A stretch of 64,000 nt of DNA from Candidatus Omnitrophota bacterium (GCA_028717245.1 JAQUOD010000001.1:149514-213513), one strand, 5' to 3'; shown: positions 22,817 through 57,695, numbered from the stretch's first letter. A program made the numbers and translations. The notes: generated from the sequence alone by a model not told the origin.

Positions 22817-23708
22817 CTCTTCTTAAACCCTTCATCCTGATAAGTCCATCCCTTAATCCTAAAGGAATAAATCCTAATTCTTTTTCTAATTTCAAAGTCA
22901 GATATGATGTGTTTTTGGGCCTGGGCGCTATATGGGGAAAAAAACTGCTATCTACCGGCCTGATTAAGTCTTTATCCAGGCCAAAAATATCTGCAATAAT
23001 TATCGCGTATTCGTAACGGTTGACTATATCTTTGCCTGCGATATGATAAATGCCATGCTTATCTTTATCTATAAGGGACAGGATAACGTCAGCGCAATGG
23101 TATGCCGAGAGAGGGTTCTCATACACATCATTTACCATATTCACCCTTTCTTTTTTATTCAGTTTGTCCAGAAGGAAAGTAACTAAATTTTTTCTCTCAT
23201 TAGGATTATTCCAGCCATACATCAATATCGGACGGACTATTATGTATTTATTAAAAGTTTCTCTTATTCTCTTCTCGCACTCTAATTTTATTCTCCCATA
23301 ATTATTTATAGGGTTAGGCTCATCTTCTTCTCTATAAGGGGCGTTTTCTCCGTCAAAGACTGCGTTGGTTGATACATATAATAACCGTGCACCAGTCTCT
23401 TTACATAATTCTATGATATTTTGAGTCCCGATAACATTAGAGCGATATGCCTCTTCGTAATGCTGCTGGCAAAAATCGACATCAGCTATGCCGGTAGTAT
23501 GAATAACAACTTCTATATTATTATTTTCATTAAATATTTTCTGCATAGCGTTTTTATCTTGAATATCAGAACAATAATACTTTAGATTTTTAGTGTTTGC
23601 CATCTTATATTTCCCCAGGTATATACCTGTTATATTATGAGAAAATACATTCATTTCTACGAGTGATTTACCTAATAAACCAGTTACGCCAGTTATTAAA
23701 ATATTCAT
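22806..23708 (-). CDS. SDR-family NAD(P)-dependent sugar reductase/epimerase (RmlD-like)
   Basis: The N-terminal motif ILITGVTGLLG is a Rossmann motif. The length is 300 aa, which is RmlD-sized. Confidence 0.6.
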   Translation of the reverse strand: MNILITGVTGLLGKSLVEMNVFSHNITGIYLGKYKMANTKNLKYYCSDIQDKNAMQKIFNENNNIEVVIHTTGIADVDFCQQHYEEAYRSNVIGTQNIIELCKETGARLLYVSTNAVFDGENAPYREEDEPNPINNYGRIKLECEKRIRETFNKYIIVRPILMYGWNNPNERKNLVTFLLDKLNKKERVNMVNDVYENPLSAYHCADVILSLIDKDKHGIYHIAGKDIVNRYEYAIIIADIFGLDKDLIRPVDSSFFPHIAPRPKNTSYLTLKLEKELGFIPLGLRDGLIRMKGLRRDGN

Positions 23709-25516
23709 TTTAAAAGAGATAACCAGGCCTCTTCCCTGGTTGGTTCAGTAATAATATCGCCTGCCGGAAACGAAATATCCCCGTTGAAATTTATCAAATC
23801 TAAGTCAATCTCTTGTTTCTCCGTTATTTTATACGGCTTAAGACCCAGATCTTCAAGAATATCCAAATCTATCAATTCAGTATCTATTTTATAAACAGGT
23901 ATCCCTTTATTTAAAGCTTCTAAGGCTGCGGTTGTTGAGGAGTAAACGACCACATCAATCTCTTTTAAAATTTCATCTAACGGGCTCAAATTAACTATTG
24001 CTGCCTTAGCCGCCTTTCTTATCGCCTTTCTTAATTTATTATTGAATAATTCTGGGCGGGGTTTAACATATAACTTAAAGCTATGATTTTTTGAAACCAC
24101 ATTTCCCAAGTAATAAATAAGTTCCAGGCTGCGGGAAAGAGGTACCTGTAAGATAAATAATACGTTCTTTTCTGATTGATTTCCTCTCTTGACAAAACCG
24201 TCTTTTTCCGTTTTCTTTGCATATCTAATTGAGCCGCCGTTTATTATTTTTGTTTCCTCAAAACCCGCCGAATTCAAAACCTTTTCATAATGGGAACTAT
24301 TTGTGATTATGTAGTCTGGACAGGGAGTAAATTTATATTCTTGCGGGCTTAAGAAATGGTTTATTTCCATTGAAGATAATGTTGAATGCTGGTAACCCGC
24401 GCTTACAATACTATGATTAGCATTCTGAATAGCCAGAAGAATCATTTTCTCCCAAGGCTGGTTCTCAAAGGGATAGGTAACAAGTTTAAGCTGCTTATTC
24501 TCGTTAAAATAATTTTTGTAAGCGTAATATAAACACAGCCTGACCCAAAAAGAAGTCGAAGCTGATTCCTGGAGATATTCTCTAAAGAATAATGTGCTGT
24601 AGTCAGTACTTTGTAAAATTTGCGCCCTTTTATCAGATGGCATAATGGGATGTGTGAAAATTGTTCTCAGCCAATCCCCTATCTTTAAATAAAAATTAGG
24701 CAAAAAATAATTTCCTTTCACCTTCAAGATTATATTTTCAAGAAGACCGGAAAAGTCAATCTGTGAGCCCATTATTACTTTATGACCTTTTTTTTCATAA
24801 ATATCCCCGATAAGCGCAAGTTTATAAATATCCCTGAAGGCGCCTTCTTTAAAAGAGCGCTTATCAAAAAAAGTAAATACCATTACTTCAGCAGCAGAAT
24901 CATTTATTGATTTAAGCCTTTTAAAGAATTTTATTTTCAGATATCCTTCAAACAAAAAAAGAATAATTTTACGCCACAAGAATAAAGCAGTAGCTAACCT
25001 GGCTTTTATCCGATAATAGATAATTGAAACTAACATCCTAAGACAGACCCCTTTTATAAGAACAGAATTTATCCCTGTTTTATGGACTCCTGTTTCCAAA
25101 AGCCGATGCAAATAGGGATCTTCAATTATCACCAATAATGGAATTGTACGTAAAGATTTATCAAGCGCCCAACCTTGTATCAGGTTAAAATAGCAGAACA
25201 AAAGAAAGAAATCGGTTTGAAACGGAGATTTAGAAGCGAGCCTCGCTGCCCACCAGCGCAAATCATCCTTATATTGCAGATTAATCTTAGCAATCCAATC
25301 TAAAAAAGGTTCCTTTAAATCACGCGATAATTTATATAATTCTTTGGCGTAGCAGTACCTTTTGGTTCTAGAAAATAGAGTTTCAATCTTCTGTTTGCGT
25401 TCAATGTCAATCCCAAAATAACACCATCTCCATTCAGCTCCAATGGGAAAATCTCTTGCGTAATTTATAATCTGCCCTGCAGAACCTATTACTATTTTTT
25501 TTGATGTATCATACAT
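23705..25516 (-). CDS. Orphan 603-aa protein with a TagB/TagF-like GT-B C-terminal donor-binding motif. It is a putative transferase for a CMP/CDP-activated donor.
   Basis: The C-terminal segment IDVVVYSSTTAALEALNKGIPVYKI resembles the D-x-[LI]-[IV]-T-D-Y-S-S...KP-[IV] signature of CDP-glycerol glycerophosphotransferases. It is paralogous in pattern to 53979-55856 and 55860-57695. Confidence 0.4.
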   Translation of the reverse strand: MYDTSKKIVIGSAGQIINYARDFPIGAEWRWCYFGIDIERKQKIETLFSRTKRYCYAKELYKLSRDLKEPFLDWIAKINLQYKDDLRWWAARLASKSPFQTDFFLLFCYFNLIQGWALDKSLRTIPLLVIIEDPYLHRLLETGVHKTGINSVLIKGVCLRMLVSIIYYRIKARLATALFLWRKIILFLFEGYLKIKFFKRLKSINDSAAEVMVFTFFDKRSFKEGAFRDIYKLALIGDIYEKKGHKVIMGSQIDFSGLLENIILKVKGNYFLPNFYLKIGDWLRTIFTHPIMPSDKRAQILQSTDYSTLFFREYLQESASTSFWVRLCLYYAYKNYFNENKQLKLVTYPFENQPWEKMILLAIQNANHSIVSAGYQHSTLSSMEINHFLSPQEYKFTPCPDYIITNSSHYEKVLNSAGFEETKIINGGSIRYAKKTEKDGFVKRGNQSEKNVLFILQVPLSRSLELIYYLGNVVSKNHSFKLYVKPRPELFNNKLRKAIRKAAKAAIVNLSPLDEILKEIDVVVYSSTTAALEALNKGIPVYKIDTELIDLDILEDLGLKPYKITEKQEIDLDLINFNGDISFPAGDIITEPTREEAWLSLLK

Positions 25517-25531: not shown

Positions 25532-26248
25532 TTATTTTTTTAAGTATTTTTTAATCCACTCTTCTGTTTTTTTAAAATCCTCTTCCTTATGGACATCACA
25601 ACATTCATCTATAATAAACGGTTTTATATTGTTACCCATAAAAGCCCAGGGCTGCTGGCCGTTTTTTGAAAATATTGTTTTTTTTACATTTAGTACCCAG
25701 AAATTATGACAGAGAAAATATGACGGTTCCAACTCTTGCCTGTTTGTAGATATCGTTTTATTCTTAAAATCAAAAAAAGGCTCCAAAAATCCCTTCTTAT
25801 TAATCCTTTTCGCCCTAAAAGGATGGCGATCTAAATCTAAACAAACAGGAACAACTGCAGAAACCGATTTATTTGTTAAGATTTCTTTAATACAAATATC
25901 TATCCATTCTGTCTTTATCACTGCGGAATTTGCCAAGAGCACAATTAAGATGTCCGGTTTAAGTTTATCTAGCCTTTCTATTTCTCTCAAGGCATGCCTT
26001 ATGGCTTCAACGTGTTTTGAATTGGGCCTCGCCAGATATTCCGGCCTTAATATTTTTTTATATCCTATCCTACCCACAATTTCCAAAATCTTCTCGCTGT
26101 CACTACTGGCATAAAAATAGGAAATATATTTTGAGCGCCTGGCTGCTCTAGCGGGATAGCTAACCAAAGGTTTATTAAAAAGGGGTAGAATATTTTTATC
26201 TGCCAAGGTACTGCTGGCTTTTCCTGTTAATAATGCTGTTATTTTCAT
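25532..26248 (-). CDS. Divergent cytidylyltransferase (CMP-ulosonate synthetase family, NeuA/KdsB-like)
   Basis: The N-terminus is ITALLTGKASSTLADKNILPLFNKPLVSY, which aligns with the IxARxxSxRxPxKNxxxxxGxPLI pattern of acylneuraminate cytidylyltransferases but is divergent. The length is 238 aa. Confidence 0.5.
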   Translation of the reverse strand: MKITALLTGKASSTLADKNILPLFNKPLVSYPARAARRSKYISYFYASSDSEKILEIVGRIGYKKILRPEYLARPNSKHVEAIRHALREIERLDKLKPDILIVLLANSAVIKTEWIDICIKEILTNKSVSAVVPVCLDLDRHPFRAKRINKKGFLEPFFDFKNKTISTNRQELEPSYFLCHNFWVLNVKKTIFSKNGQQPWAFMGNNIKPFIIDECCDVHKEEDFKKTEEWIKKYLKK

Positions 26249-26268
26249 CGCGGTCTCCTGATAAAACG

Positions 26269-26937
26269 CTAAATTTGGAGCTCCTTTTTAAAGAATAGAG
26301 AAATTAAGTCGCTGGCTATAGTCAGGTCTGTGATGTCTTTAATCTCCATAGAAGCCAGCATATCGATTTCGTATAAATACGGCCTTATGCCGAAGTAGTT
26401 TTTATATTTTATATATATATCCTTTCTGGCTATGAAACAACCGTTAGTAATTTTATAAACCGGTTTAAGAGAATTTCTGTTTACAACCTTAGTCATCTCG
26501 AAATTAAGGGCCTGGTTTTTAAAAATAATGTATTCCTGTAACCTGGAAACCGAAATGAGGCTGTCGTATCCTGAACCCAATTTTAAGAATTTCTTCAGCA
26601 TATTATTAAAATCAATTACGCTGACAAAAGGCGAAGTCACATGCGTCCAGATAATAATTTCTTTATCTATTTCCTTTACGCATTCGATAATAGCTTTTGA
26701 CATATCGATTTTATGCCTTTTGATTATATTAACACCATAGGCTTTAGCTATTTTCGCAATCTTAGACGAAGGGGTAGAGATAAAAATATTTTCTCCCCTG
26801 ATAAGGTTTTTCACCTGAGCAATCTTCCATTCCAATAAAGTTAAATCACCGAACCTGACTAAATCGCCGTCTTCGCTATACCTGTTTTTTTCTAAAGCCG
26901 GGATAACTACTGCTGCATTTTTATACATTTTAATCAC
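26269..26937 (-). CDS. Divergent cytidylyltransferase (CMP-ulosonate synthetase family-like)
   Basis: The sequence has AAVVIPALEKNRY...GDLTLLEWKI and an IIWTHVTSPF (QxTSP-like) motif. The length is 222 aa. Confidence 0.5.
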   Translation of the reverse strand: MIKMYKNAAVVIPALEKNRYSEDGDLVRFGDLTLLEWKIAQVKNLIRGENIFISTPSSKIAKIAKAYGVNIIKRHKIDMSKAIIECVKEIDKEIIIWTHVTSPFVSVIDFNNMLKKFLKLGSGYDSLISVSRLQEYIIFKNQALNFEMTKVVNRNSLKPVYKITNGCFIARKDIYIKYKNYFGIRPYLYEIDMLASMEIKDITDLTIASDLISLFFKKELQI

Positions 26938-27701
26938 AATCTCCTTTCCAACTGCGTAAGCCTGGCTATTTCTGCTTCTATAAACAGATCATTTATCTCT
27001 TTTTTCGAGAGTATATATAACTCTTCAAATTTTAAGGCCGCCCTTAAGGCATTGGGATTATTCAGTATTATCTGCGCGGGTAAAATTACTTTTCTCGTTT
27101 CGATCTTATCGAATAATCTAAGGATCTTCTTATGCTTCCTAAATATCTCCAGGCTCCTTGCGCTGATACCACCTCCGATGCATGCCTGTAAATTATAATG
27201 TTTGATCTTACGTCCGACATTTTCTAAAATATTAAGAATAAAATTAGTATCGGGATGAATATTTTCATCAAAATAAGACTCGCTTAAATCAGTCCGGCCT
27301 ATCGTAATACCGTCAATCTTATCCTTTGCGTATCCCAATATCTCATCAATTTGGTTTACGGCGCTTTTTGTTTCTATATTTAAAATTAGCTGCAGCTTTG
27401 TCTTTTTATAAATATTTTTAGATGCCTGGACAAATTTCCTGACCCCGAATTTGCTTTCTACCATAGGCGCGATCAAACCATCTACCCCGATATCCACTGA
27501 ATTTTTTATATCGGTTACCGCCTCCACTCCGCCGATTTTCAAGAATAATTTAACCCCTATCCTCGATGTCAATCTCCTTAACTTCACCGCATCCCTGAAT
27601 GAAGATCCTTCTGCTTCAAATTCCGCTTTAATTCCCTTAAGGCCGTATTGTTGTTTTAATTTTTCCAGCTGCTCAAATAATTTATTCTCCAGTCCGTACA
27701 T
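26934..27701 (-). CDS. HpcH/HpaI-family (class II, pyruvate-dependent) aldolase/lyase
   Basis: The motifs GVDGLIAPMVES, NIETKSAVNQIDEIL and DGITIGRTDLS match the conserved HpcH/HpaI/CitE blocks. The length is 255 aa. Confidence 0.65.
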   Translation of the reverse strand: MYGLENKLFEQLEKLKQQYGLKGIKAEFEAEGSSFRDAVKLRRLTSRIGVKLFLKIGGVEAVTDIKNSVDIGVDGLIAPMVESKFGVRKFVQASKNIYKKTKLQLILNIETKSAVNQIDEILGYAKDKIDGITIGRTDLSESYFDENIHPDTNFILNILENVGRKIKHYNLQACIGGGISARSLEIFRKHKKILRLFDKIETRKVILPAQIILNNPNALRAALKFEELYILSKKEINDLFIEAEIARLTQLERRL

Positions 27702-27702
27702 T

Positions 27703-28461
27703 TTAAGCTCCTAAGATTTTTTTTATTTTATAAATGGCTTCTTTTTCGCATTCCGAATTATTATCTGTTAACACGTATCCCCATCCAGCATGGATCCTTA
27801 CCAGACCCGTAATTCCGCCGCAAGAACATAAATGGTCTCTAGAGTCATCTATGATAAGGGACTTGCGCACCCGGTATTTATCTATTATAAATTTAACGAC
27901 CCCGCCCTTTGAATTGAACCTTTTGTAATATTTCCCGTCATATATATTATCGCTGGAAAAATTAACCTTATGGACTTTTAGCAGCTGTAAAACTGTATCC
28001 TTATCTTTTGTGGTGATAATAAAAAAAGGGGGCTTTGCCTCCTTAATTATTTCCGAAATCTTATATAAAAAATTATATGGGGTATTTAAAGAAAGCCAAA
28101 ATTTAGGGTATTTTACCCTGATATATCTTCTGGCTTTTAAAAAACGTTTTTCAAAAATCTGCTTTTCTAGAGAATCTATATTACAATGTAACCTAAAGTC
28201 CCGCGCAATATCAATGCTCCTATCTTCTGACTTTTTATCTATCGCTTTAAGTAAATCATAATAATCTGTGGCGCAATTGATAAGGAACCTGTATTTCTTG
28301 AAGATTTTAAAATGTTCGGATTCAAAGTTAATGCTACCGATAGAGCGTTTATTCGTAGTGGCAAGCGTACTTACGCAATAAGCCTCTTTTAGGGTATCGA
28401 AGAGTACTCCATCTAAGTCCAAAAAGATTGCCTTATCAATTACTTTGCTCTTATTTGCCAA
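27703..28461 (-). CDS. HAD-superfamily hydrolase (phosphatase-like)
   Basis: The N-terminal motif IFLDLDGVLFDT is HAD motif I (DxDGxL). The length is 252 aa. Confidence 0.6.
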   Translation of the reverse strand: MANKSKVIDKAIFLDLDGVLFDTLKEAYCVSTLATTNKRSIGSINFESEHFKIFKKYRFLINCATDYYDLLKAIDKKSEDRSIDIARDFRLHCNIDSLEKQIFEKRFLKARRYIRVKYPKFWLSLNTPYNFLYKISEIIKEAKPPFFIITTKDKDTVLQLLKVHKVNFSSDNIYDGKYYKRFNSKGGVVKFIIDKYRVRKSLIIDDSRDHLCSCGGITGLVRIHAGWGYVLTDNNSECEKEAIYKIKKILGA

Positions 28462-46545: not shown

Positions 46546-47625
46546 CTATTCTATAATTTTTAACTTCTCAATTGCCTTTTTATATTCTTCCCAATGCCCG
46601 ATATCGATATATTCGCTTTCGTTGACCGGATAAGTTATAACCTTCTTATTATTTTCAATTAAAGTTTTTATTAAATCAGTCATATCAAAATATGAATTTT
46701 TAGGAATAAACCGCAGGGATTCTTTATTTAATATATAAACTCCCGTATTAATCGTGAAGGTATACTCCGGTTTCTCAATGGTTTCCGTAACCTCTCCCCC
46801 CTCTTTAAATCTTATCACGCCATATGGGACCTTATAATGTTGTATGGAGGATAAGATTGTCAGTAGCGCTTTTTGTTCTTTATGCAAATTCAATACTTCT
46901 TCGAAGTTCGCTTCAACGATTACATCACAATTTGAAAGAATAAAATTATCGCAGATCTTTCCTTCCATAAGTTTCAGGCTGGCTGCGGTCCCCGAATATT
47001 CGCTGTCCCAGACATAATGCACGGCATAATCTTTTTCTATGCTGTCAAAATACGATTCTATCATTTTGCCTTTATAATTTAAGGTCAGGTAATATTCATT
47101 AATCCCACTCCTGCGGAATTTATCTATGATAATCTCAATAATCGGTTTCTCGCCGATAGGAATCAGGGCCTTAGGGAAAATATTGCTAAACGGCTCCAGC
47201 CGCGTACCCTTGCCTCCGGCCATAATCACTGCGGGGACGCTGACTTTACCGATATTGAAAAGCCCCTGGCTGCCGTCAGAGAACGCCTTATCCCAGGTTA
47301 TAAAATCTATTACCCGCTCTGCCTTATCTGTTATCGGGATAAGATCTATTTTATTTTTGATGAACATTTCCCTCGCTTCTTCTATGGAGAAGGCATCTTG
47401 ATTTATAAATATCGGCTTCTTATTATAGATATCCCTGATATTTCCTTCCAGGCTTTTGCCCTTTAATATATACCGCCTGATATCACCATCGGTGATTGTG
47501 CCCAGCAGCTTGTCTTTCTTGTCTACTACCGACAGGACTTTCGTTGCAGTCTTATCTAATTTCTTTAAGGCATCTTTTATAGACTCATCCTCTTGGATTA
47601 AGATATTTTTCGTTAACATACGCAT
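46546..47625 (-). CDS. CBS-pair domain fused to a sugar-1-phosphate nucleotidyltransferase (PtmE-like)
   Basis: An N-terminal tandem CBS region (...GTITDGDIRR...) is followed by the NTP-transferase G-loop VIMAGGKGTRLEPFSNIFPKALIPI. The length is 359 aa. Confidence 0.7.
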   Translation of the reverse strand: MRMLTKNILIQEDESIKDALKKLDKTATKVLSVVDKKDKLLGTITDGDIRRYILKGKSLEGNIRDIYNKKPIFINQDAFSIEEAREMFIKNKIDLIPITDKAERVIDFITWDKAFSDGSQGLFNIGKVSVPAVIMAGGKGTRLEPFSNIFPKALIPIGEKPIIEIIIDKFRRSGINEYYLTLNYKGKMIESYFDSIEKDYAVHYVWDSEYSGTAASLKLMEGKICDNFILSNCDVIVEANFEEVLNLHKEQKALLTILSSIQHYKVPYGVIRFKEGGEVTETIEKPEYTFTINTGVYILNKESLRFIPKNSYFDMTDLIKTLIENNKKVITYPVNESEYIDIGHWEEYKKAIEKLKIIE

Positions 47626-47633
47626 CTCCTCTA

Positions 47634-49022
47634 TTAAAGGTGCCGAAAGCCCCTAAAATTAACGTCTCTGTCTATATGCAGTTTCCTATTTTGCTCCATT
47701 GCCTCGCTAAGTTTCTTTTGGAAATAAAACTCTAATAACCTGTTATTCGCCTCATATAAACAGCGGTAAAATTCATCGTCGCTCATATCCGTAAAATTTA
47801 CCGCTAATAAGTCCGTATTGAGATGCTTATTTTCGTAAAAATCTTCGCAGTCCTTAATCAGGCCTTTTTCAATGGCATAATAATAGAGGGGGCTGCCCGG
47901 ATAAGGCGTTACCGGACGGATAGTCCGCATTTGAGCCCCGTCGCTATATTTCAATAAAAATTCAACTCCCTTTTTTAAGGTTTCCTGATTATCGCCGATA
48001 TTACCAAAAATTATATTTAAGCCTGGGCTTATCCCGGATTTTAGCGTAGCCTCAACCCCCCTGATTATCTGGTCAGTCGTCAATCCCTTATGCATATTCT
48101 TTAAAACATCATTATCCATCGCTTCGATACCATAGTTTATGAATACGCACCCGGCTCTTTTCATTAAATTCAGCACTTCGGGTGTGGCATAATTTAACCT
48201 GCCGTTACAAGACCACTTTACTCCCACATTATCCCTTATGAAATCTTCGCATAAGCGCATTGTCCTTTCTTTAGAGGACATGAGCAGTTCGTCGGAAAAC
48301 GCAATATAAGTTATGCCGTACATTCTTTTTAAAAACATGATTTCATCAATAATGCCTTTGCTGCTGCGCGACCTGAATCCCGTATCCATGCGGTAACAAA
48401 ATGTGCATTTAAAAGTGCATCCCCTGCCGGATAGTACAGATATAACAAAATCCGTTCTGGAGGCATTGGGCATTCTCGCCAAACGGTAATAATCCATGGG
48501 AAAAAGCTCATAGGCCGGAAAGGGTATTTTATCTATATCTTCTATCAGGGGCCTCCTCTCATTAATCACCGCCTTATCCCCGTCTAAATACGCTATCCCC
48601 TTAATCTTGGATAAAGACTGTTGATGCCTAACTGCATCAAGCAACTCCACAACGGTTATTTCTCCCTCGCCGATAACAACGGCATCCGCCTTGGTTTTCT
48701 TAAGGTAAAATTCCGGCTCAGGCGAGGGGCCGTGGCCGCCGATAATGTAAAATGGCCGGTTTACCGAGTTGTTTATTGCCTGCGAAAGGCCTAAAAGTTT
48801 CCTATACTGGTAATATCCGCCTACAATACCCAAGCCGATGATATCAAATTTATTCTGGTCCAAGTATTCGGTAAGGTGGCTGTCCGGATAATGGAATTTA
48901 TCCTGGTTGTATATTTTAACTTCGTGCCCTTCTTTTATGAGTACCGCGGCAATATAAGCTAAGCCTTGCGGCAGCCTATGCATATATGAATCGTCATCGT
49001 AAGCTACTAATAATACTTTCAT
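47634..49022 (-). CDS. B12-binding domain radical SAM protein, paralog 5 of 6. It is a close paralog of 57716-59098.
   Basis: The radical SAM motif is GCTFKCTFCYR. The N- and C-termini are alignable by eye with 57716-59098 (MKVLLVAYDDDS.../...NFRGFRHL versus MKILFVLYDNES.../...SFRGTRH). Confidence 0.8.
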   Translation of the reverse strand: MKVLLVAYDDDSYMHRLPQGLAYIAAVLIKEGHEVKIYNQDKFHYPDSHLTEYLDQNKFDIIGLGIVGGYYQYRKLLGLSQAINNSVNRPFYIIGGHGPSPEPEFYLKKTKADAVVIGEGEITVVELLDAVRHQQSLSKIKGIAYLDGDKAVINERRPLIEDIDKIPFPAYELFPMDYYRLARMPNASRTDFVISVLSGRGCTFKCTFCYRMDTGFRSRSSKGIIDEIMFLKRMYGITYIAFSDELLMSSKERTMRLCEDFIRDNVGVKWSCNGRLNYATPEVLNLMKRAGCVFINYGIEAMDNDVLKNMHKGLTTDQIIRGVEATLKSGISPGLNIIFGNIGDNQETLKKGVEFLLKYSDGAQMRTIRPVTPYPGSPLYYYAIEKGLIKDCEDFYENKHLNTDLLAVNFTDMSDDEFYRCLYEANNRLLEFYFQKKLSEAMEQNRKLHIDRDVNFRGFRHL

Positions 49023-50206
49023 AACCCTTGCCTCTCTTTATTTTTAACAGGGATATCGTAAAACTCTTTCTTGATGATATTTTTCAGGCCGTAATTCTTA
49101 AGGATCTTCTTAATCCTAGGTGCTGTTTTTCCGTCGCCATAGGGATTAGCAACTCCCCTAAGCATACTTTGGAATTTTCTGCTGTATAACTTCCTTATGG
49201 CATTAGTTATCTCTTTTTTTATGGGCCGACAATCTATGATACTTTTGGCCTTAATTCTGCCTTTCTGCCTATCCCCTATATTTATGGTCCCGATTTTAAA
49301 ACTGGGGGCCTCTATGATACCGCTTGAGGAATTACCCACTATGGCATCGACAAATTGCATTGTGGATAGATACAGGCGTTGCCCCATTGAGGTAAATGCA
49401 ACAGCCTTAGAGGAATTCTTTGCTACATATTCATCAATCAGCTTATTAATTATTCTTCCATCCATATCAGCATTTGCCTTAGTAAAGATAAGGGCTGTCT
49501 CCCTCAATTCATCCAAAGATTGAAGCAAACTACGAAATTGTGCTCCTGAAGTATTATTTTCCAGAGTAACCGGATGATAAGTAATTAATAAATTATGTTT
49601 ATTAAATTTAAAATGCAGTTCTTGTTCTATCGCCTTTTTTGACAAAAGCCTCAGTTTTTTTAGATTATCTAATCCCAGTGCCCCTACCTTAAAGACCCTC
49701 ACAGGGTATTCGCCCAATTGGATAACCCTTCTTCTATATTCTTCGGCAGAAGTAAAATGTAAATGGCTCATTTTGGTTATCGCATGCCTGAATGCCTCAT
49801 CAATGACGCCGAATGTCGCTTCTCCGCCATGAATATGGGCAATAGGGATTCTCAATACCAGAGCTGCAACCGCAGCAGAAAAGGCCTCAAACCTATCCCC
49901 AACAATAACGATTATATCCGGCCCTAAGGCCTTAAATGCCTTAGAAAAACTGATCAGCCCTGCCCCCACGGCCCTGCTCAATCCGAATGGGGTATCAGAA
50001 TTAAGCGAAATACCTACTTTTTTATCTATCTTAAAACCGTCCTTTTCGATTTCTTTATAGGTTGATCCGAACTCTGGCAATAAATGCATGCCGGAAACAA
50101 CAAGCTGCAGCTTTAAGGCAGGATCGTTCTTTATAACAATTAGTAAAGGCCTTAAAATACCGTATTCTGCCCTTGTTCCGGTAAAAACGCAGATTTTTCT
50201 TTTCAT
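49019..50206 (-). CDS. UDP/GDP-N-acetylhexosamine 2-epimerase (hydrolysing), NeuC/LegG-like
   Basis: The N-terminal motif ICVFTGTRAEYGILRPL and the overall 395-aa length match NeuC-family enzymes. Confidence 0.85.
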   Translation of the reverse strand: MKRKICVFTGTRAEYGILRPLLIVIKNDPALKLQLVVSGMHLLPEFGSTYKEIEKDGFKIDKKVGISLNSDTPFGLSRAVGAGLISFSKAFKALGPDIIVIVGDRFEAFSAAVAALVLRIPIAHIHGGEATFGVIDEAFRHAITKMSHLHFTSAEEYRRRVIQLGEYPVRVFKVGALGLDNLKKLRLLSKKAIEQELHFKFNKHNLLITYHPVTLENNTSGAQFRSLLQSLDELRETALIFTKANADMDGRIINKLIDEYVAKNSSKAVAFTSMGQRLYLSTMQFVDAIVGNSSSGIIEAPSFKIGTINIGDRQKGRIKAKSIIDCRPIKKEITNAIRKLYSRKFQSMLRGVANPYGDGKTAPRIKKILKNYGLKNIIKKEFYDIPVKNKERQGL

Positions 50207-51207
50207 AATTCTATTAATGAATCCTTTTTAAAAAAAAATTTTGCCATCCTGCCGATTACATCATCCCATTTCATCGGATTTAAACCAGAGGCAGGCCTTT
50301 TAGTTGTAATATTAGCTGCAGTAAAATATTCTCCCTTACTGATATTTCTTGCTGCGACTATGCTTTTACGGGCTATTATTTTATTCTTGCGTTCTGAGCA
50401 AGATGCTTTTTTGATTCCGTTACCAAGGGCCTTTTCTATATTTCTTATCCCATTTATCATTGCCTTAAGTTCTTTCGGTTCCAAAGATGCCTTATGGTCA
50501 GGACCTTTCATATTTCTATCCAGGGTAAAATGTTTCTCTATCACAAATGCGCCCAGGGCTACTGCGGCTATAGGAACCTCAATACCGATAGTATGGTCGG
50601 AATAGCCTACCCTAACCTTAAAAGCCTCTTTTATCGTGAGCATAGCGCGTAGATTGGCATCTTCAAAGGGAGTCGGATATTCGGTATTACAATGGAGTAA
50701 TGTTATTTTTTCTTTTGCCGTCCCCGCCTCAGTAAGCACATCCAGCGCGTTTTTTATCTCGCGTAGGTCCGACATACCGGTTGAAAGTATAATTTTTTTC
50801 TTCAATCTCCCGATCTTTCTCAAATATGGAAGATTGGTAATTTCCCCCGAGGGGATCTTAAACATATTAATACCGAGCTTATCCAATAGTTCAATGCTTT
50901 CTAAATCAAAAGGTGATGATAAAAATATAATCTTTTTTCTTTTACAGTAATGCATAAGCTCTTTATGGGCATCGAACGTTAATTCTAATTTCTTTATCAT
51001 TTCAAATTGAGATTCTTCCTTATCAGTGGTTTTCTTTTGGTATTCAGCCTTAGGGGCAAGCTTGGTCAGTAATCTATCGGCTTTAAATGTCTGGAATTTT
51101 ACCGCATCGGCCCCTGCTTCTACAGCTATATCAATCATTCTTTTAGCTGTTTTAATGCTCCCGTTATGGTTTACGCCTGCCTCTGCAATAATAAAAGTTT
51201 TACCCAT
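50203..51207 (-). CDS. NeuB-family nonulosonic acid synthase (LegI/NeuB-like) with a C-terminal SAF domain
   Basis: The N-terminus is FIIAEAGVNHNGSIKTAKRMIDIAVEAGADAVKFQTF. The length is 334 aa. Confidence 0.9.
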   Translation of the reverse strand: MGKTFIIAEAGVNHNGSIKTAKRMIDIAVEAGADAVKFQTFKADRLLTKLAPKAEYQKKTTDKEESQFEMIKKLELTFDAHKELMHYCKRKKIIFLSSPFDLESIELLDKLGINMFKIPSGEITNLPYLRKIGRLKKKIILSTGMSDLREIKNALDVLTEAGTAKEKITLLHCNTEYPTPFEDANLRAMLTIKEAFKVRVGYSDHTIGIEVPIAAVALGAFVIEKHFTLDRNMKGPDHKASLEPKELKAMINGIRNIEKALGNGIKKASCSERKNKIIARKSIVAARNISKGEYFTAANITTKRPASGLNPMKWDDVIGRMAKFFFKKDSLIEL

Positions 51208-51215
51208 AATAAGTC

Positions 51216-51875
51216 TTATCTATTAGCATTATATTCAAACTTATGGCCATACAATTCTATGTACGCCCCGGGCATACCAGGATAGGCAGTCGCCTTTACG
51301 CGTTTTTTTATCTCTTCCTGCGGCATAGCCGCTTCTATTCGGCATAATTCCTCTAATTCTGAGCGAGTATAGGGCTTCCTCTTCCATGTTTCGTTAGAAA
51401 AAGGAATGATATTTTTAGTGAGAATAGAGTCCATAATTTCATAAAATAAAGTGTACATACATTCGTAACTTTTTATACTTAGGGTATATACGGAATCATT
51501 TCTTAACATTGAGAATCTTTTAACCGCGATTATTTTACCGCTATCGACATTCTTTTCCATTAAATGGGCGGTAATGCCGTAATACTTTTCTTGATTGTAT
51601 ATGGCAAAATTAAAACAGCCTATACCCGGATACTCTGGCGGGCCAGGATGAAAGTTTATACTCCATAATGCTGTTTTATTTAAAATTTGCTCCGGAATTA
51701 GCCACGGAGACAAATAAGAGATTAATATATCCTGAGAGCCGTTGAGCGCCTCTAGAGGAATAGATTCTCCTCTTTCCCCTTCATAGATAGCTACAGTATC
51801 AAAGTTTTTCTTTAAGTATTCTTTCACTTCATTAACTGTGGGTTTATCCGGTTTAGTAAACAGAGCGATTTTCAT
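51216..51875 (-). CDS. Formyltransferase-family protein (putative sugar N-formyltransferase)
   Basis: The motifs SINFHPGPPEYPG and GITAHLMEKNVDSGKI match the formyl_trans_N core blocks. The length is 219 aa. Confidence 0.55.
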   Translation of the reverse strand: MKIALFTKPDKPTVNEVKEYLKKNFDTVAIYEGERGESIPLEALNGSQDILISYLSPWLIPEQILNKTALWSINFHPGPPEYPGIGCFNFAIYNQEKYYGITAHLMEKNVDSGKIIAVKRFSMLRNDSVYTLSIKSYECMYTLFYEIMDSILTKNIIPFSNETWKRKPYTRSELEELCRIEAAMPQEEIKKRVKATAYPGMPGAYIELYGHKFEYNANR

Positions 51876-51882
51876 ATTAATA

Positions 51883-52974
51883 TTAAAGCGATTCTTTTAT
51901 AATCTTACATATATAGCGTATATCGTTTTCAGAATTTAGCGTCGAACTCGGCAAGCATAAGCCTTTTTCGTAAATATAGCGAGAATTATCGTAACGTCCT
52001 TGTCTATATTTTTTATATGGAGGGAACTCTGTCACGGGCATAAAGATCCTACGCGTGGGAATTCCCTTTACACTTAATTTTCTCCTTAATATTACTATGT
52101 CAACTTTATCACCGAAAGTAATGCAGGTGAGCCAAGAAGAGCTATCTGCCCCCTCGTACTCGTCTTGAAAACGGATATTTCTGATTCCCTTCATTTCATT
52201 TCGGTAAATAGCCTTAAATCTCTTTTTCTTGGCAAGGAACCCATTCAATCTCTTTAATTGCGCCAGGCCTAAAACCGCTTCTATATTAGTCATTCTGTAA
52301 TTGAAGCCGACTTCAGGATAGAAATACCCCCTTGACTCATCCCGAGCTTGGTTTACTAAAAACTTTATGTGTCCTAATCTCTTTTTGCTATTCCCCACTA
52401 CCATACCGCCGCCACCCGTAGTTATTATTTTATTTCCGTTAAAGCTAAAACAACCCAAATCTCCATATGTCCCTGTATATTTTCCTTTATATTTTGCCCC
52501 GAGGCTCTCGGTAGCATCTTCTATCACATAAATATTGTATTTGCGTGCGATTTTCATTATTTCATCCATATTACAGGGATTACCGTAAAAATGGACAGGT
52601 ATTATTGCTCTGGTCTTTTTGGTTATTTTTTTTTCAATCTTTTCAGGAGATATGTTCCAGGTTCTTATATCCACATCTACAAAAACCGGCTTTGCCCCTA
52701 CATATATAACAGGGTTTACTGTAGCGATGAAGGTCAGATTCGGAACAATTACTTCGTCTCCTTTACCTATCCTAAGCTCATATAAGGCGATATGCAGGGC
52801 AGCTGTACCGCTCTGCGTTGAAACGGCTTTTTTTGTCTCCAAATATTTAGCAAATTTTTCTTCAAATTCTGAAACATAAGGCCCGTATGTGGAAATGAAT
52901 CCTTTATCAATAGTTGTATTAATATAATTTTTCTCCAAGCGGCCAATATTAGGGGCGTCTAGTTCAATAAACAC
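51883..52974 (-). CDS. DegT/DnrJ/EryC1/StrS-family PLP sugar aminotransferase (LegC/PseC-like)
   Basis: The sequence has the FSFNGNKIITTGGGGM lysine region. The length is 363 aa. Confidence 0.9.
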   Translation of the reverse strand: MFIELDAPNIGRLEKNYINTTIDKGFISTYGPYVSEFEEKFAKYLETKKAVSTQSGTAALHIALYELRIGKGDEVIVPNLTFIATVNPVIYVGAKPVFVDVDIRTWNISPEKIEKKITKKTRAIIPVHFYGNPCNMDEIMKIARKYNIYVIEDATESLGAKYKGKYTGTYGDLGCFSFNGNKIITTGGGGMVVGNSKKRLGHIKFLVNQARDESRGYFYPEVGFNYRMTNIEAVLGLAQLKRLNGFLAKKKRFKAIYRNEMKGIRNIRFQDEYEGADSSSWLTCITFGDKVDIVILRRKLSVKGIPTRRIFMPVTEFPPYKKYRQGRYDNSRYIYEKGLCLPSSTLNSENDIRYICKIIKESL

Positions 52975-53966
52975 TCTTTCTCTCCTAAGTCTGGCGAAGT
53001 ATTGTAGTACTTTTTATCCTCGGGGTTATTAATTAGGCCTGACTTCAATAAATTAAGAACTTCCTTTACTCCGTCTACAACTGTGAATTCCTTTCTAATG
53101 TTTAATAACCTTCGAAGCTTTGAAAAATCTACCTTATAATCCCTTAAATCATACCCACTTTTAACTAATTCTATTTTAGTTTCCGGCATAAATGTTTTAA
53201 CAATTTGGGCGATCTGTATCTTCTGATAATTCTCTTCATTGAAACCCAGGTTAAAAACATTATTCTTGACCCTTTCAAAATCTTTAACCATTTGGATAAT
53301 TATCTTGGCGGCATCAACCACATGAATATAGGGCCTTTGACTGTAAGGAAGAAAAATATCCAAATATTTCTTGGTGTGGGCATTCATCGTGAAATCATTT
53401 ACGGTCAAATCAAACCTCATTCTTGGCGAATAACCATATACGGTAGAAAGCCGGCAGATAACCCAATCTAAATTTTTAACCTTATCCAATAAATGCCTCT
53501 CCACTCCTACCTTTGTTTCTGCATATAAAGAAAGGGGCTTTAAGGGCGATTCCTCGTTTGCCATGCCTTGCGAGACTCCGTAGTTAGAACAGGTTGATAA
53601 AAATATGATGCCGGTAGCTTCTGATTTCTGAATTTTTTCTATTAACCGTATAGACATATCATAATTAATAAGGCGAGTTAATACGGGAAATTTTTTGCTC
53701 GCAGGGTCCCCCACTACTGCAGCTGCGTGGATAATAATATCTATGTCCTTTAAGAATCCATCCAGCAATTCCTCCCTGCATAAATCCTCTCTTATAAATT
53801 CATAATTAGGATTATGGGAATACTCTAAAGGAACTTCCTTATCAAACCAAAGATGGTCAACTACCCTTACTTTAAAATTATTACGCAGGGATAAATCTGC
53901 AATTACTGAGCCGATATATCCGGCTCCGCCAGTTATTAAGATCCTTTTTTTTAGATTTGTCCCCAT
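52959..53966 (-). CDS. NAD-dependent nucleotide-sugar 4,6-dehydratase/epimerase (LegB-like candidate)
   Basis: The sequence has ILITGGAGYIGSVI and the YAETK YxxxK motif. The length is 335 aa. Confidence 0.75.
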   Translation of the reverse strand: MGTNLKKRILITGGAGYIGSVIADLSLRNNFKVRVVDHLWFDKEVPLEYSHNPNYEFIREDLCREELLDGFLKDIDIIIHAAAVVGDPASKKFPVLTRLINYDMSIRLIEKIQKSEATGIIFLSTCSNYGVSQGMANEESPLKPLSLYAETKVGVERHLLDKVKNLDWVICRLSTVYGYSPRMRFDLTVNDFTMNAHTKKYLDIFLPYSQRPYIHVVDAAKIIIQMVKDFERVKNNVFNLGFNEENYQKIQIAQIVKTFMPETKIELVKSGYDLRDYKVDFSKLRRLLNIRKEFTVVDGVKEVLNLLKSGLINNPEDKKYYNTSPDLGEKECLLN

Positions 53967-53978: not shown

Positions 53979-55856
53979 TTAATTAACCTGATGCGCCGTT
54001 TGACTTGATAATGTTAATTCGTACAGATTATTTCTCAATCTTTCCAGGGCCTTATCATCATCAAAGGCATCGTATTCTCTTATTTCTTTCTCACTGATGA
54101 CATCTCGGCAAGTAAATCTTCCGTTTAAAATATCATTCAATTGCTTAAACAGAAGGTCTTTATCCTCAAATACAAATATGTTTTCATATTTCTTGGCGAA
54201 GGGATGGCATTTATTGCCTGTATTATCAAAATAAAGGGCGTTTTTACCGCATATCAATGCTACTGTTGACGGGCTGTTTAATCCCATACTTACACATACA
54301 TCCGAAACAGCCAAAGCTTCCTCAAAACCAAATTCTAAAGGGTTCAAATAGAAAAAGTTAGTGCAACTTGTCAAGCCATCATATATTTTTCTATATTCAG
54401 CAGCTCTCTCCCCCAGATATCTTAAGACTATTTGTTTATCAACTTTTGGTTTTAACAAAACATTGATACCCTTATTATTTCTACAGAACTCTTTTATTAT
54501 TTCCAGATATCTAAGAAAAAAACTGCTGGTAAGATGCAAGCTATCGTCAAAAGAATTATCAAAAAATGTCACTATTTTCCCCCCATTCTTGATATTAAGT
54601 TTTTGAGAAATAATTTTTTCTTTATTACCAATCGCCTGATTAAATTCCTGCTTAAATATGCATCCAATATTAATCTTGGTATCTATAAAAGTATACGCCG
54701 AGTGAAAATCATAATGTATGTCGCTCCAGGTAAAATAAATATTATGCGCGCAGAAGGCATAGCTGTATCCTTTAAAAGCGGTTAAATCGCTCCAGTTGAA
54801 AATAGTATTTTTTGCGCCATATTTGTTTAGAATAATTGTTGTTACATTATCATCGTAGTTTATTGATGAAATATTGTATTTTATCCTGTATGAATTCATT
54901 AATACTTCAATGGGAAAACACCTTTTATGGAATAAAAATATATAATAGAATAGGTATGATTTTTTGTTTAAGAGCAATCGTAAGTAAGTTGCTAAAGGTA
55001 GTAAAAAATAGAAGGACAAAATATCAAAAATATTTTTGTTGATATTAATCCTTAATTCCGGCACAGAAACAGTATCAAAACCTCTTTTATTTGCTTCTTT
55101 AAAAAAATTATCAACTCGGTCTTGGTATCGGTTATTAAATTCCAATATTAACAAATCGCTTTTCTTAAATTTAATATTATCTACCACGATATCATCCCTT
55201 AGTGTCTTTTGGTAGAACCCTGATGCAGCTTCTTTGGATATTTTATAGTCCTTTATACTTTTGTTAAAAACCACCCCCCTTCTAATGAATTCTATAAATA
55301 ACCATCCGTAATATAAGCATAGAAAAAACGGTTCCCACAAAAGAAATACATGCTTTATCTTATATTTAACTCCGTATTTTGCTTCCATGTATCCAAGCAT
55401 AAAATCATTAATAGGGTTTTTACTGATCAGTATAGCTCTCTCTTTTAAACCAGATAACCTCACTGAATGCAAACTCTTTAATAAGATAAACACATGGTTT
55501 GAAATTTCCCTCTTTATATATGCTTCAAATTTGTCTGTATTAAGAATTCTATTGTAATAGCTAATGACTTTATTATCATTTCCAATTATTTTATTGTAAA
55601 AATTATTAGTTAAATCCACTGTTTCCGCGTGAATTTCATATATTAAACCCTCATAATCTTCTAAACATGTTTTATATTCTTTAACTGATTTTTTAACATA
55701 TCCCCTGACAAAAGGAATAAGGTTTATGCACGGGGGTATTTGAGAACCGATTATTGTCAAGCAATGATTCCTGATCCAGCACCATAAAATAATATTCAAA
55801 TTTTCAAACTCGTTTCTTCCGAATAAAGCGATATAATTTTTTCTAATGCTTAGCAT
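53979..55856 (-). CDS. Orphan 625-aa protein with a TagB/TagF-like GT-B C-terminal motif. It is a paralog-like relative of 23705-25516 and 55860-57695.
   Basis: The C-terminal segment is SDVCVSMGLNSPSTVALICGKNALYF (D-x-h-h-[ST]-x-x-x-S-[ST]...GK-x-h). Confidence 0.4.
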   Translation of the reverse strand: MLSIRKNYIALFGRNEFENLNIILWCWIRNHCLTIIGSQIPPCINLIPFVRGYVKKSVKEYKTCLEDYEGLIYEIHAETVDLTNNFYNKIIGNDNKVISYYNRILNTDKFEAYIKREISNHVFILLKSLHSVRLSGLKERAILISKNPINDFMLGYMEAKYGVKYKIKHVFLLWEPFFLCLYYGWLFIEFIRRGVVFNKSIKDYKISKEAASGFYQKTLRDDIVVDNIKFKKSDLLILEFNNRYQDRVDNFFKEANKRGFDTVSVPELRININKNIFDILSFYFLLPLATYLRLLLNKKSYLFYYIFLFHKRCFPIEVLMNSYRIKYNISSINYDDNVTTIILNKYGAKNTIFNWSDLTAFKGYSYAFCAHNIYFTWSDIHYDFHSAYTFIDTKINIGCIFKQEFNQAIGNKEKIISQKLNIKNGGKIVTFFDNSFDDSLHLTSSFFLRYLEIIKEFCRNNKGINVLLKPKVDKQIVLRYLGERAAEYRKIYDGLTSCTNFFYLNPLEFGFEEALAVSDVCVSMGLNSPSTVALICGKNALYFDNTGNKCHPFAKKYENIFVFEDKDLLFKQLNDILNGRFTCRDVISEKEIREYDAFDDDKALERLRNNLYELTLSSQTAHQVN

Positions 55857-55859: not shown

Positions 55860-57695
55860 TTACTTCCCATTATGCTGAAAAACGCAGCATTCTAACTTAG
55901 AATACAAAGAACTATCTGACAATTTAATATCTACTTGATATTGTTTACCATCGGACTCCAGAAAATCTTTAATAAGCGGCTTAATATCATTAAATTCTTG
56001 GAATGTAGTGAGGCTTTTACCAAAGAATTCTCTGGCGCCTTTCCTAATGGAAAGGCCTTCCCTAACAAAAGCTAATACCGGAATCTTATTTACTGCTGCC
56101 TGGTAAAAGGAAGAGCTTGGATTGTCGGTTAAAAACATATCGCAATTTTTCAAATTTGTTAATAAGGAATCCATCCTAGCAGAAACATTTGTAAACTTTC
56201 TGGTTGTAATATATTTATAAATTGGGCTTATATTCCCGCTATTTAATGTCGGCAGGCCTTTCCAGATAAAATCATAATCGGTTAACGTAGACAGAAAATC
56301 TATCAATTGTAATTGAAATCTGTAATACCATGTGGATGTATATTCAGCCCCGTCCAGCCTGTTTATTGTTTCCTGAAAAAAGCCCGGCGCATAAAGTATT
56401 CTTTTCTTCCTTTTATTAATAGATTTACGCCTTATCCGCGATAACTTTAACCAATCAACATTAATCATAATTTTGGTCTGATACCCCCTACGCTTAGTTA
56501 CCATTTCAAAATATTCTTTCCCTTCATCGTCATTGGCGAAAAAAATATCTGCAAAACGAAGCTCTGTTATATCCCACATTAAATTTGCGAAAACATTACC
56601 TCCATGGCAGCCGGAGACATTTGTAATACTAGCACTGTTTTTCCCCAGATGCACCAGGGCCTCGTTTACCGTTAAGTTATTCAGGTAAGGATAAATAATA
56701 TACTTAAGATTAACTTTTTCTGTAAAAGACAAAAGGGTATCATAAAATGCGGTTAACTTAGGAATATAACTCTCAAAAAGATAATCTATGCGCGGTTTAA
56801 TCAGGTTTTTAAAATCGATACCGCAGAGTTCTTTCCAGGTGTCAAAAATAAAGTCTGAAATCATACTTTTCTCACGTGGCGGATTAAAAGTCTTATTTAT
56901 CAAAAAATCTATTTCTATCTTTGCGCTTGGTGAATACCTATAAATCTTTTCATCTTCCTTTTTTATAAAAACATTCCAACCGTTTTTATAGAAATCCTTA
57001 ATCCACAGCCTTACCCCATAATCAGTCCCTATAAAAAGAACTGATTTGTTGGCATGGATTTTTGACCTGCCATTTAGCTTGCATTTAATTCCGGTCAATA
57101 AACTATCTATTGCAAAGCGTAACTGCCGCACAATAACCTTAGTTTTTCCAGAACAAGGCACTCTTTTCCTCAATCCGGGAGAAGGCAATAGATGATTAAT
57201 AATTTTTATATCCTTATTTTTACAAATAACCGGCAATACATGATAAAATACTGAATTATCTACCATATAAATCCTATCATCAATATATTCTTTAAAATTA
57301 TAGCCATAATATACTATTGACTTACAAGAAAATTTATCGAGTATTTTCTCTATAAGTTTTGTATAAATATAAATGGGGTCAAGCAGCAACCTTAAATTAT
57401 AGAAAAGAAGATCGCCTATTTCTAAATTTCTAGCTTTAACCTCGGCTATTTCTTTAAAAACCCTATTTAATTCTTGAGAAATTAACAACTCTGTATTAAA
57501 TAATTTCTCCGACATCCGATAGAAAACGGTTAATTCTGATTCAGACAGGCAATCTTCAAGAATTAGGTAGGATATATTTCTCCTACCTAATTCAAAACAT
57601 ACATCAGGATTTAAAGCTACTATTTTTAAGCCGCCCGCCATGAGGTCCCTATCAAACCTCTCAGCAAAAATAAGCGTAGTAGTATTATTTACCAT
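55860..57695 (-). CDS. Orphan 611-aa protein with a TagB/TagF-like GT-B C-terminal motif
   Basis: The C-terminal segment CDMFLTDNPSSSFYQAAVNKIPVLAF closely matches the DxLITDYSS...KP[IV] signature of CDP-glycerol glycerophosphotransferases. Confidence 0.45.
   Translation of the reverse strand: MVNNTTTLIFAERFDRDLMAGGLKIVALNPDVCFELGRRNISYLILEDCLSESELTVFYRMSEKLFNTELLISQELNRVFKEIAEVKARNLEIGDLLFYNLRLLLDPIYIYTKLIEKILDKFSCKSIVYYGYNFKEYIDDRIYMVDNSVFYHVLPVICKNKDIKIINHLLPSPGLRKRVPCSGKTKVIVRQLRFAIDSLLTGIKCKLNGRSKIHANKSVLFIGTDYGVRLWIKDFYKNGWNVFIKKEDEKIYRYSPSAKIEIDFLINKTFNPPREKSMISDFIFDTWKELCGIDFKNLIKPRIDYLFESYIPKLTAFYDTLLSFTEKVNLKYIIYPYLNNLTVNEALVHLGKNSASITNVSGCHGGNVFANLMWDITELRFADIFFANDDEGKEYFEMVTKRRGYQTKIMINVDWLKLSRIRRKSINKRKKRILYAPGFFQETINRLDGAEYTSTWYYRFQLQLIDFLSTLTDYDFIWKGLPTLNSGNISPIYKYITTRKFTNVSARMDSLLTNLKNCDMFLTDNPSSSFYQAAVNKIPVLAFVREGLSIRKGAREFFGKSLTTFQEFNDIKPLIKDFLESDGKQYQVDIKLSDSSLYSKLECCVFQHNGK

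Follow-up and report, generated by a model that had tools for sequence, protein, structure and literature searches.

GT-B-fold proteins beside cytidylyltransferase modules in an Omnitrophota surface-glycan locus are candidate transferases for CMP-activated ulosonic acids

Enzymes that attach legionaminic acid (Leg), pseudaminic acid (Pse) or related acids to glycans are scarce beyond the Maf proteins, KpsS1 (GT118) and the enzymes of Tannerella forsythia (PMC5420450, PMC7439481, PMC12887879). The T. forsythia proteins Tanf_01245 and TFUB4_00887 are TagB/glycosyltransferase B (GT-B)-like, contain an HP motif and are encoded beside Pse or Leg genes; knock-out and complementation identified them as Pse/Leg transferases that are required to add the terminal nonulosonic acid (NulO) to a lipid-assembled O-glycan, and BFO_1060 is the counterpart of Tanf_01245 in strain FDC 92A2 (PMC5420450). 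Divergent GT-B-like transferases of ulosonic acids have repeatedly given rise to new CAZy families, namely GT99, GT107, GT118 and GT140 (PMC12887879). Here we analysed a 64,000-nucleotide stretch of a Candidatus Omnitrophota metagenome-assembled genome (MAG), hereafter the window, which is a surface-glycan locus of more than 60 kb with about 37% GC content, encoded on one strand (minus). Three of its genes, here called A, B and C, encode proteins that resemble Tanf_01245 and TFUB4_00887 in being GT-B proteins encoded beside modules for activated sugar acids, to which the same transferase logic would apply. An initial annotation of the window had proposed that they are new nonulosonate or ulosonate transferases; the association with sugar-activating modules holds in other genomes, but the idea is not new, since it was already realised in T. 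forsythia. The observation behind the proposal was partly confirmed and the interpretation partly supported. As the best-supported reading, we regard it as somewhat probable that A, B and C are transferases for cytidine monophosphate (CMP)-activated (non)ulosonic acids, and we infer their donor and reaction from gene context only.

The three coding sequences were confirmed exactly where they had been placed, all on the minus strand and with products of 603, 625 and 611 aa, and they are real genes because each has conserved full-length homologs. Each also lies beside a CMP-activating module as had been claimed, a KdsB/NeuA-type cytidylyltransferase being encoded in each neighbouring module. Their description as orphans with no recognisable family, in contrast, had to be abandoned: A is distantly related to TIGR04326, B carries PF27878, and relatives of C carry PF27859 or match TIGR04331. 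For A, 50 full-length homologs were found. A scored 76 bits (E 1.9e-21, residues 311-542) against the NCBIfam model TIGR04326 ('surface carbohydrate biosynthesis protein', LIC13510 type), whose cutoff is 250; as judged from this match, A is a homolog of TIGR04326 that falls below NCBI's membership threshold. The near-invariant motifs of the A family are PFENQPWEK, GYQH, K-x-H-P and T..EA..G.P, and A agrees with the family at 46 of the 47 columns that are conserved at >=90%. The sole mismatch is the His of K-x-H-P, which is Arg at residue 487 of A (codon CGC, 24055-24057) and His in 47/47 aligned homologs, including the 77%-identical P0001. The Arg codon is one transition away from CAC, and the exact A protein sequence is present on three public contigs. 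R487 may be a functional variant, as Arg can also contact phosphate, or A may be an inactive copy.

B is 100% identical over its full length to the database protein P0051, which is annotated as a hypothetical protein and carries PF27878 (PFTS_polysacc), as do all 55 full-length homologs of B. Against TIGR04417 ('polysaccharide biosynthesis PFTS motif protein', cutoff 100) B scored 19.3 bits (E 4e-4, residues 294-560). The motifs of the B family are LLKPK and SDVCV.MG.NSPST.ALICGKNALYFDNTGN..HPF.

C is likewise 100% identical to a protein in public collections. An exhaustive hidden Markov model (HMM) search with the C profile retrieved 988 cluster representatives at E<=1e-3. C itself did not match TIGR04331 (cutoff 225 bits) at E<=0.1; among its relatives 21/78 did, with a best E of 3e-12. 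One relative, P0107 (33% identical), aligns with C across 98% of the query (E 4e-81), carries PF27859 and matches TIGR04331 ('LIC12162 family transferase') at E 4e-12 with 46 bits. The C-family HMM also matches the PF27859 proteins of loci L005 (E 3e-33) and L026 (E 9e-6). Family motifs are an invariant His in QHG, FIWKG and D.PST..YEA..G.P, and C deviates at three of the 13 highly conserved columns (W72I, D77N and E532Q). Close relatives of C (23-31% identity, full length; L009-L022) come mostly from Dehalococcoidales MAGs. C-clade genes were also found in Cloacimonadota, in an Omnitrophota single-amplified genome (SAG) and in two archaeal MAGs (Thermoplasmata and Methanobacteriota), and thus the C family crosses the boundary between bacteria and archaea.

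A, B and C share with the LIC12162, PFTS and TIGR04326 families a length of about 600 aa and the glycan-locus context, and they represent divergent clades since they score below the cutoffs of TIGR04326, TIGR04417 and TIGR04331. A full-text literature search on the names of these three families yielded one incidental mention and no experimental work; the mention concerns a lipopolysaccharide (LPS) island of Herbaspirillum, in which LIC12162-type and 'surface carbohydrate biosynthesis' genes adjoin neuABC (PMC6679464). As these families are functionally uncharacterised, belonging to them does not by itself identify a mechanism.

The C-terminal block on which the initial annotation was based is present at residues ~518-543 of each protein. 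It corresponds to a beta-strand plus helix in the C-terminal Rossmann domain, an element common to GT-B enzymes. The three proteins had been called paralogous, which is broader than what the comparisons support. Pairwise BLASTP of A, B and C gave no significant alignment and did not align the C-terminal blocks, the lone marginal match being a hydrophobic helix at ~160-210 in A and B (E 0.004), and the HMMs of the A, B and C families each match only their own member among the three in the window. In profile-profile comparisons the A and C families aligned over ~275 C-terminal columns with a probability of 97.7-98% and E 2e-12 to 3e-13, and the two blocks were superposed. After two Dehalococcoidales homologs of B had been added, the B profile aligned with A at E 3.5e-4 over 159 columns and with C at E 0.02 over 235 columns, again with the blocks aligned. 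The controls, namely other GT-B proteins of the window (a GT4 enzyme, the NeuC-type epimerase and a GT4-DUF218 protein), gave E 0.018-0.67 over short stretches. Judged by these profiles, the similarity of A and C is real remote homology that concerns the C-terminal ~275 columns only, the B-A link appears modestly above the generic GT-B background, and the B-C link is not separable from that background by E-value. Compositional bias was ruled out as the source of the A-C block by an E of 2e-12 with compositional scoring, and it may still contribute to the block link of B. The N-terminal ~290 residues are family-specific and could not be aligned between the three families. The Lys of K-x-H-P is common to all three families in the alignments.

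To place the proteins among known folds, AlphaFold2 (AF2) models of A (predicted local distance difference test (pLDDT) 90.5, predicted template modelling (pTM) score 0.91) and B (pLDDT 89.5, pTM 0.90) were compared with known structures. Both are predicted to have the two Rossmann-like domains of the GT-B superfamily, with the nucleotide-binding domain at the C-terminus, in an arrangement that superimposes in the models on TagF/TarL. C was assigned to the same fold because it is homologous to A over 277 columns (E 2e-12). TagF, TarL and TagB, which are membrane-associated GT-B enzymes that use cytidine-nucleotide donors, were among the best structural matches of the A and B models together with Cps3D and Bcs3 and gave the longest alignments. 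A Foldseek search of the PDB with the A model returned generic GT1, GT4, TagF and epimerase matches, with E ~1e-6 to 1e-5 and TM-scores per target of 0.35-0.57. The earlier fold assignment therefore stands at the level of the GT-B superfamily and is not specific to TagF, since generic GT-B enzymes or uridine diphosphate (UDP)-N-acetylglucosamine (GlcNAc) 2-epimerases match the models at least as closely.

The likeness to TagF raises the alternative that A, B and C are TagF/TarL-like phosphotransferases or polymerases, which would use cytidine diphosphate (CDP)- or CMP-linked donors to make phosphodiester polymers or to add a phospho-substituent, with no ketosidic bond. TagF-type enzymes transfer phospho-alditol, not sugar. 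The C-family motif D.PST..YEA..G.P appears to resemble the DYSS...kP motif of TagF-type enzymes (PF04464). The TagB/TagF-specific signature that had been claimed was not recovered: the Glyphos_transf model (PF04464) matched none of A, B and C at E<=1 and, at E<=0.1, 0/48 A-family and 0/78 C-family members. In addition, the cytidylyltransferases neighbouring A, B and C differ from those of TagF-type systems; all are of the KdsB/NeuA/PseF type (CTP_transf_3), which make CMP-ulosonates and not CDP-alditols, no TagD/TarI-type gene for CDP-alditol supply was found among the 50 window open reading frames (ORFs) scanned in the functional survey, and the conserved association of A, B and C is with NeuB or aldolase modules. 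We therefore consider a phosphotransferase role improbable.

Sequence comparison with known ulosonic acid transferases gave weak signals. [quoted passage not shown] Searched against the PDB, the A-family profile had the KpsC Kdo transferases as its best matches, aligned on K-x-H-P and EA..G.PV at a sub-threshold E of 0.1 over only ~70-140 residues; the B-family profile found nothing and the C-family profile noise only. Unlike these enzymes, B and C are without the HP His, and neither the Asp nucleophile nor the Glu base that the retaining Kdo transferases use for catalysis was identified in A, B or C. A Pfam scan of the three proteins, with a Pfam set that did not contain PF27859 and PF27878, gave only a sub-threshold DUF6716 match for A and no match to the Maf flagellin NulO glycosyltransferases, and no flagellar gene was found among the annotated window ORFs. 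Bacterial sialyltransferases (GT38, GT52 and GT80) are marked by D/E-D/E-G and HP motifs (Freiberger 2007, via PMC5420450); A, B and C did not show these motifs together with a match to the family HMMs. The model of the BFO_1060 family (NF046086) did not match A, B or C at E<=0.1, and it was matched weakly (E 7e-4) by one of the 78 C-family members.

Borderline hydrophobic helices were noted at 148-188 in A and at 170-188 and 279-297 in B, and none in C; true transmembrane anchoring was rejected on this basis. The hydrophobic and basic helices suggest that A and B may be associated with the membrane.

The neighbourhoods of A homologs were compared at five other loci (L001, L002, L006, L007 and L008). 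A CTP_transf_3 gene lies upstream of the A homolog in 5/5, an HpcH-type aldolase gene is present in three and an HMGL-like one in one, and a phosphatase gene (HAD or IMPase) was called in all except L006. These loci often carry a SIS isomerase and a 2-hydroxyacid dehydrogenase, and also a GFO oxidoreductase and methyltransferases, with DegT and GT2 genes directly after the A homologs. No NeuB gene was in view in any of them. The A-type module has the look of a pathway, independent of NeuB and KdsA, that leads to a CMP-activated 3-deoxy-2-ulosonic acid. Literature searches on HpcH together with cytidylyltransferase, and on NulO in Omnitrophota, found no characterisation or description.

The A-type loci are also where a different role has to be weighed, in which one or more of the three proteins, A above all, would be a nucleoside diphosphate (NDP)-sugar hydrolase or 2-epimerase (NeuC/LegG/PseG-like) that frees the sugar for aldolase or NeuB-type condensation. 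Canonical Epimerase_2 or Glyco_tran_28_C genes occur within 10 kb in 0/5 of the other A-type loci, and L006 has early Leg genes of the PtmE, LegB, LegC and PglD types beside HpcH and A with no NeuB or NeuC in view, both of which fit a hydrolase. The window further encodes a fourth GT-B-like protein of 363 aa, positioned between a NeuB-type synthase and a cytidylyltransferase, which is the slot of a PseG/NeuC-like hydrolase. It had no Pfam match at E<=0.001 and no NCBIfam match at E<=0.1, and its match to Epimerase_2 is weak (E 0.0039). Homology links this ORF to the A family along the C-terminal two-thirds of the latter (E 1.8e-8 by hhalign over 211 columns; A-family HMM E 2e-9), and both K-L-H-P and the LEA helix are preserved in it. 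The protein is a candidate for the PseG/NeuC-like hydrolase of the upstream NulO module, or else for a fourth transferase.

Several observations argue against a hydrolase role for A, B and C. A-family members have no Epimerase_2 match and instead weakly match KpsC/KpsS, DUF6716 ('putative glycosyltransferase'), Capsule_synth, polysialyltransferase and GT1/GT4 models. A, B and C differ from NeuC/LegG/WecB and PseG in having no Epimerase_2 or Glyco_tran_28_C match and in being about 250 aa longer, with a conserved extra N-terminal region and the hydrophobic/basic helices mentioned above. The SIS and HAD/IMPase genes of the A-type loci fit a Kdo-like sugar-phosphate route in which no NDP-sugar hydrolase is needed. 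Moreover, the A-type locus L008 has another A-related protein of ~390 aa as a possible hydrolase, and in L001 the corresponding position is taken by an unannotated ORF of 393 aa, matched by position alone. Finally, the hydrolase roles for B and C are already filled in the window and in L024, where canonical NeuC-type or PseG-type enzymes coexist with B and C or their counterparts. Taken together, we consider a hydrolase role, which is the main alternative, unlikely.

The Leg-like module downstream of B is complete without B or C. It encodes a dehydratase, a LegC-family aminotransferase (413 bits, cutoff 420), a formyltransferase, a NeuB-type synthase (517 bits) and a NeuC-type hydrolysing 2-epimerase (486 bits, both above their cutoffs), together with a B12-binding radical S-adenosylmethionine (SAM) protein, a PtmE-like CBS-nucleotidyltransferase and a PseF/NeuA-type cytidylyltransferase. 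The upstream NulO module, which ends at C, encodes a NeuB-type synthase, the 363-aa protein, a KdsB-like cytidylyltransferase, a GFO oxidoreductase, a PseC-like aminotransferase and a B12-binding radical SAM protein. Of the module labels in the initial annotation, Leg-like is backed by this complete set, whereas Pse-like is weak because the upstream synthase scores higher for NeuB than for PseI.

In other genomes B and C form part of a recurrent arrangement. A gene for a ~620-aa protein of the LIC12162 superfamily lies upstream of the B-family gene in 7/7 loci and is directly adjacent in the window, L005, L024 and L026; partners of B in other genomes carry PF27859. The five Pfam-annotated B-family loci, which are of the Omnitrophota type, contain two or three NeuB genes each, and the LIC12162-like and PFTS genes stand as a pair between two NeuB-based modules. 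Related C loci were retrieved with a 12-sequence subset of the C alignment, and NeuB lies within 10 kb of the C-clade gene in seven of the nine loci with usable flanks, which come from Dehalococcoidales, an Omnitrophota SAG and an unclassified bacterial MAG. Two of the Dehalococcoidales loci, L009 and L015, keep a B-type gene downstream of the C-type gene. In L024 the first module has a PseG-type gene (Glyco_tran_28_C) and the second a NeuC-type gene (Epimerase_2), so the hydrolase roles are filled and sugar synthesis leaves no need for the LIC12162-like and PFTS proteins. Such surplus GT-B enzymes beside canonical hydrolases favour a transferase role.

A transferase role would still be compatible with ordinary GT-B glycosyltransferases that use UDP-, GDP- or dTDP-activated sugars (heptose, 6-deoxyhexose or aminosugars), where the proximity to NulO genes would merely reflect one large operon. 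The window makes several non-CMP sugars, as indicated by a heptose-like module (40648-45882), RmlC/RmlD-type genes and an Arn-like GT2/PMT_2 part, and only about five conventional glycosyltransferase genes are recognisable in it; the top Foldseek matches of A are GT1/GT4 enzymes, and some C-family members weakly match Glyco_trans_1_2 and Glyco_transf_4. Against this, the adjacency NeuB - LIC12162-like - PFTS - LegB recurs in different phyla in which the other glycan genes differ, and A-type genes always occur with CTP_transf_3 and usually with an aldolase and a phosphatase. We therefore judge sugars of this kind very unlikely as the donors; both this reading and the phosphotransferase reading are made less likely by the recurrent synteny and by the kind of cytidylyltransferase found next to A, B and C.

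If CMP-activated (non)ulosonic acids are the donors of A, B and C, each protein would act as a glycosyltransferase at the cytoplasmic face of the membrane. The C-terminal Rossmann domain, comprising the block strand and the 'T/S..EA..G.P' helix with the K-x-H-P-type strand before them, would bind the CMP part of the donor, which would be the CMP-activated 3-deoxy-2-ulosonic acid made by the neighbouring module, and the acceptor, a polyprenyl-linked oligosaccharide, would be bound by the N-terminal ~300 residues that are specific to each family. We propose to pair C with the upstream NeuB module, B with the Leg-like module and A with the HpcH-aldolase module. Once complete, the glycan would leave through the ABC exporter and be ligated by the Wzy_C protein.

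A number of points weigh against this assignment. The likeness in fold is that of GT-B proteins in general; Foldseek of A does not discriminate between TagF-like enzymes, epimerases and GT1/GT4 enzymes, and TarL scores no higher with A than hydrolysing or non-hydrolysing UDP-GlcNAc 2-epimerases do. The sequence link between the A-family profile and KpsC is below threshold (E 0.1). In place of the HP His, B carries Lys, and the C family does not conserve this His. The activity of two of the window copies is not assured, as A has Arg at the otherwise invariant His and C has Gln (E532Q) at the Glu of the YEA helix in the nucleotide-binding domain. The correspondence of three pathways to three transferases that the initial annotation had emphasised is broken by the 363-aa ORF as a fourth related GT-B protein. 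As a caution from a comparable case, the analogous candidate SpsB of Bacillus subtilis was not required (PMC7439481).

The remaining genes of the window describe the glycan system around A, B and C (Table 1). Assembly of the glycan on a polyprenyl-phosphate carrier is indicated by the presence of a WecA/MraY-type initiating enzyme and a Wzy_C-family protein, and the window also encodes GT2 and GT4 enzymes and a PMT_2 GT-C protein. A 754-aa protein with a spermine/spermidine synthase domain (2696-4960, minus strand) lies at the end of the locus and adjoins the Wzy_C-family gene.

Table 1. Coordinates of the genes and modules discussed, numbered from the first nucleotide of the window
Feature	Position	Strand	Description
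A	23705..25516	-	603 aa, predicted GT-B fold, distant TIGR04326 relative
B	53979..55856	-	625 aa, predicted GT-B fold, PFTS_polysacc family (PF27878), heads Leg-like module
C	55860..57695	-	611 aa, LIC12162 superfamily (PF27859/TIGR04331-like clade), ends upstream NulO module
Fourth GT-B-like protein	62127..63218	-	363 aa, A-family relative
Aldolase module, upstream of A	25532..28461	-	
CTP_transf_3 cytidylyltransferases (KdsB/PseF-like)	25532-26248 and 26269-26937	-	aldolase module
HpcH/HpaI-type aldolase	26934-27701	-	aldolase module
Weakly HAD-like protein	27703-28461	-	aldolase module
Leg-like NulO module, downstream of B	45830..53966	-	
Upstream NulO module, ending at C	57716..63991	-	NeuB-type synthase truncated by window edge
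Fused ABC exporter (ABC_membrane and ABC_tran)	31973..33781	-	candidate flippase/exporter of lipid-linked glycan
Wzy_C-family ligase/polymerase	5026-6273	-	
WecA/MraY-type initiating phosphoglycosyltransferase	6245-8068	-	

Downstream of A, an Arn-like set (16451-23708, minus strand) encodes an RmlD-type reductase, an ArnC-like GT2, a GT4-DUF218 fusion and a PMT_2 protein (ArnT-like GT-C). L002 (11920-21923) has the same order, with additional DegT and AsnB genes and a formyltransferase-deacetylase fusion (ArnA_N/ArnD-like). The Arn-like set points to a polyprenyl-phosphate-sugar branch on the periplasmic side. A further module (40648-45882, minus strand) encodes an RmlC-type 3,5-epimerase, a GHMP kinase, a C-methyltransferase (Methyltransf_13/14), a short-chain dehydrogenase/reductase (SDR) epimerase, a SIS isomerase and a nucleotidyltransferase, and resembles NDP-heptose or 6-deoxyheptose pathways with a C-methylation step included.

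Six B12-binding radical SAM genes were found in the window, all on the minus strand (8128-9615, 19587-21896, 30517-31965, 36824-38524, 47634-49022 and 57716-59098). The second of these is a fusion with a class I methyltransferase, and in L005 as well as in the window the LIC12162-like gene has a B12-binding radical SAM gene as its direct upstream neighbour. A further radical SAM/SPASM gene (29507-30484) overlaps by 137 bases with a class I/II aminotransferase gene (28462-29643), both on the minus strand; given this overlap, translation of the downstream gene probably begins at a later codon. The abundance of radical SAM genes suggests that the sugars undergo extensive C-methylation or other radical chemistry. 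Two Formyl_trans_N proteins are encoded on the minus strand (51216-51875 and 38532-39392). The former holds the slot of the Leg-like module in which an N-acetyltransferase would be expected (PglD/LegH type, as in L005), which hints that the product of this module is an N-formylated legionaminic-acid-like sugar.

More broadly, we tentatively suggest that the TIGR04326-like, PFTS and LIC12162-like proteins may be three new glycosyltransferase families for Leg, Pse or other ulosonic-acid donors, that the A-type may work with a NeuB-independent pathway of HpcH-class II aldolase, phosphatase and KdsB-like enzymes to an undescribed CMP-ulosonic acid, and that this toolkit may be common to Omnitrophota, Dehalococcoidales and some archaea. 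We see in this a well-supported hypothesis for annotating families that are known but uncharacterised, and not a new kind of system. Enzymes that attach Leg and Pse are wanted for glyco-engineering and for the understanding of bacterial surfaces, and the recurrent order NeuB - LIC12162-like - PFTS - LegB offers a concrete pairing of enzyme and donor. If the assignment is true, three candidate CAZy families would become testable, and hundreds of glycan loci, environmental ones and also some associated with pathogens (Leptospira, Herbaspirillum), would acquire a functional annotation.

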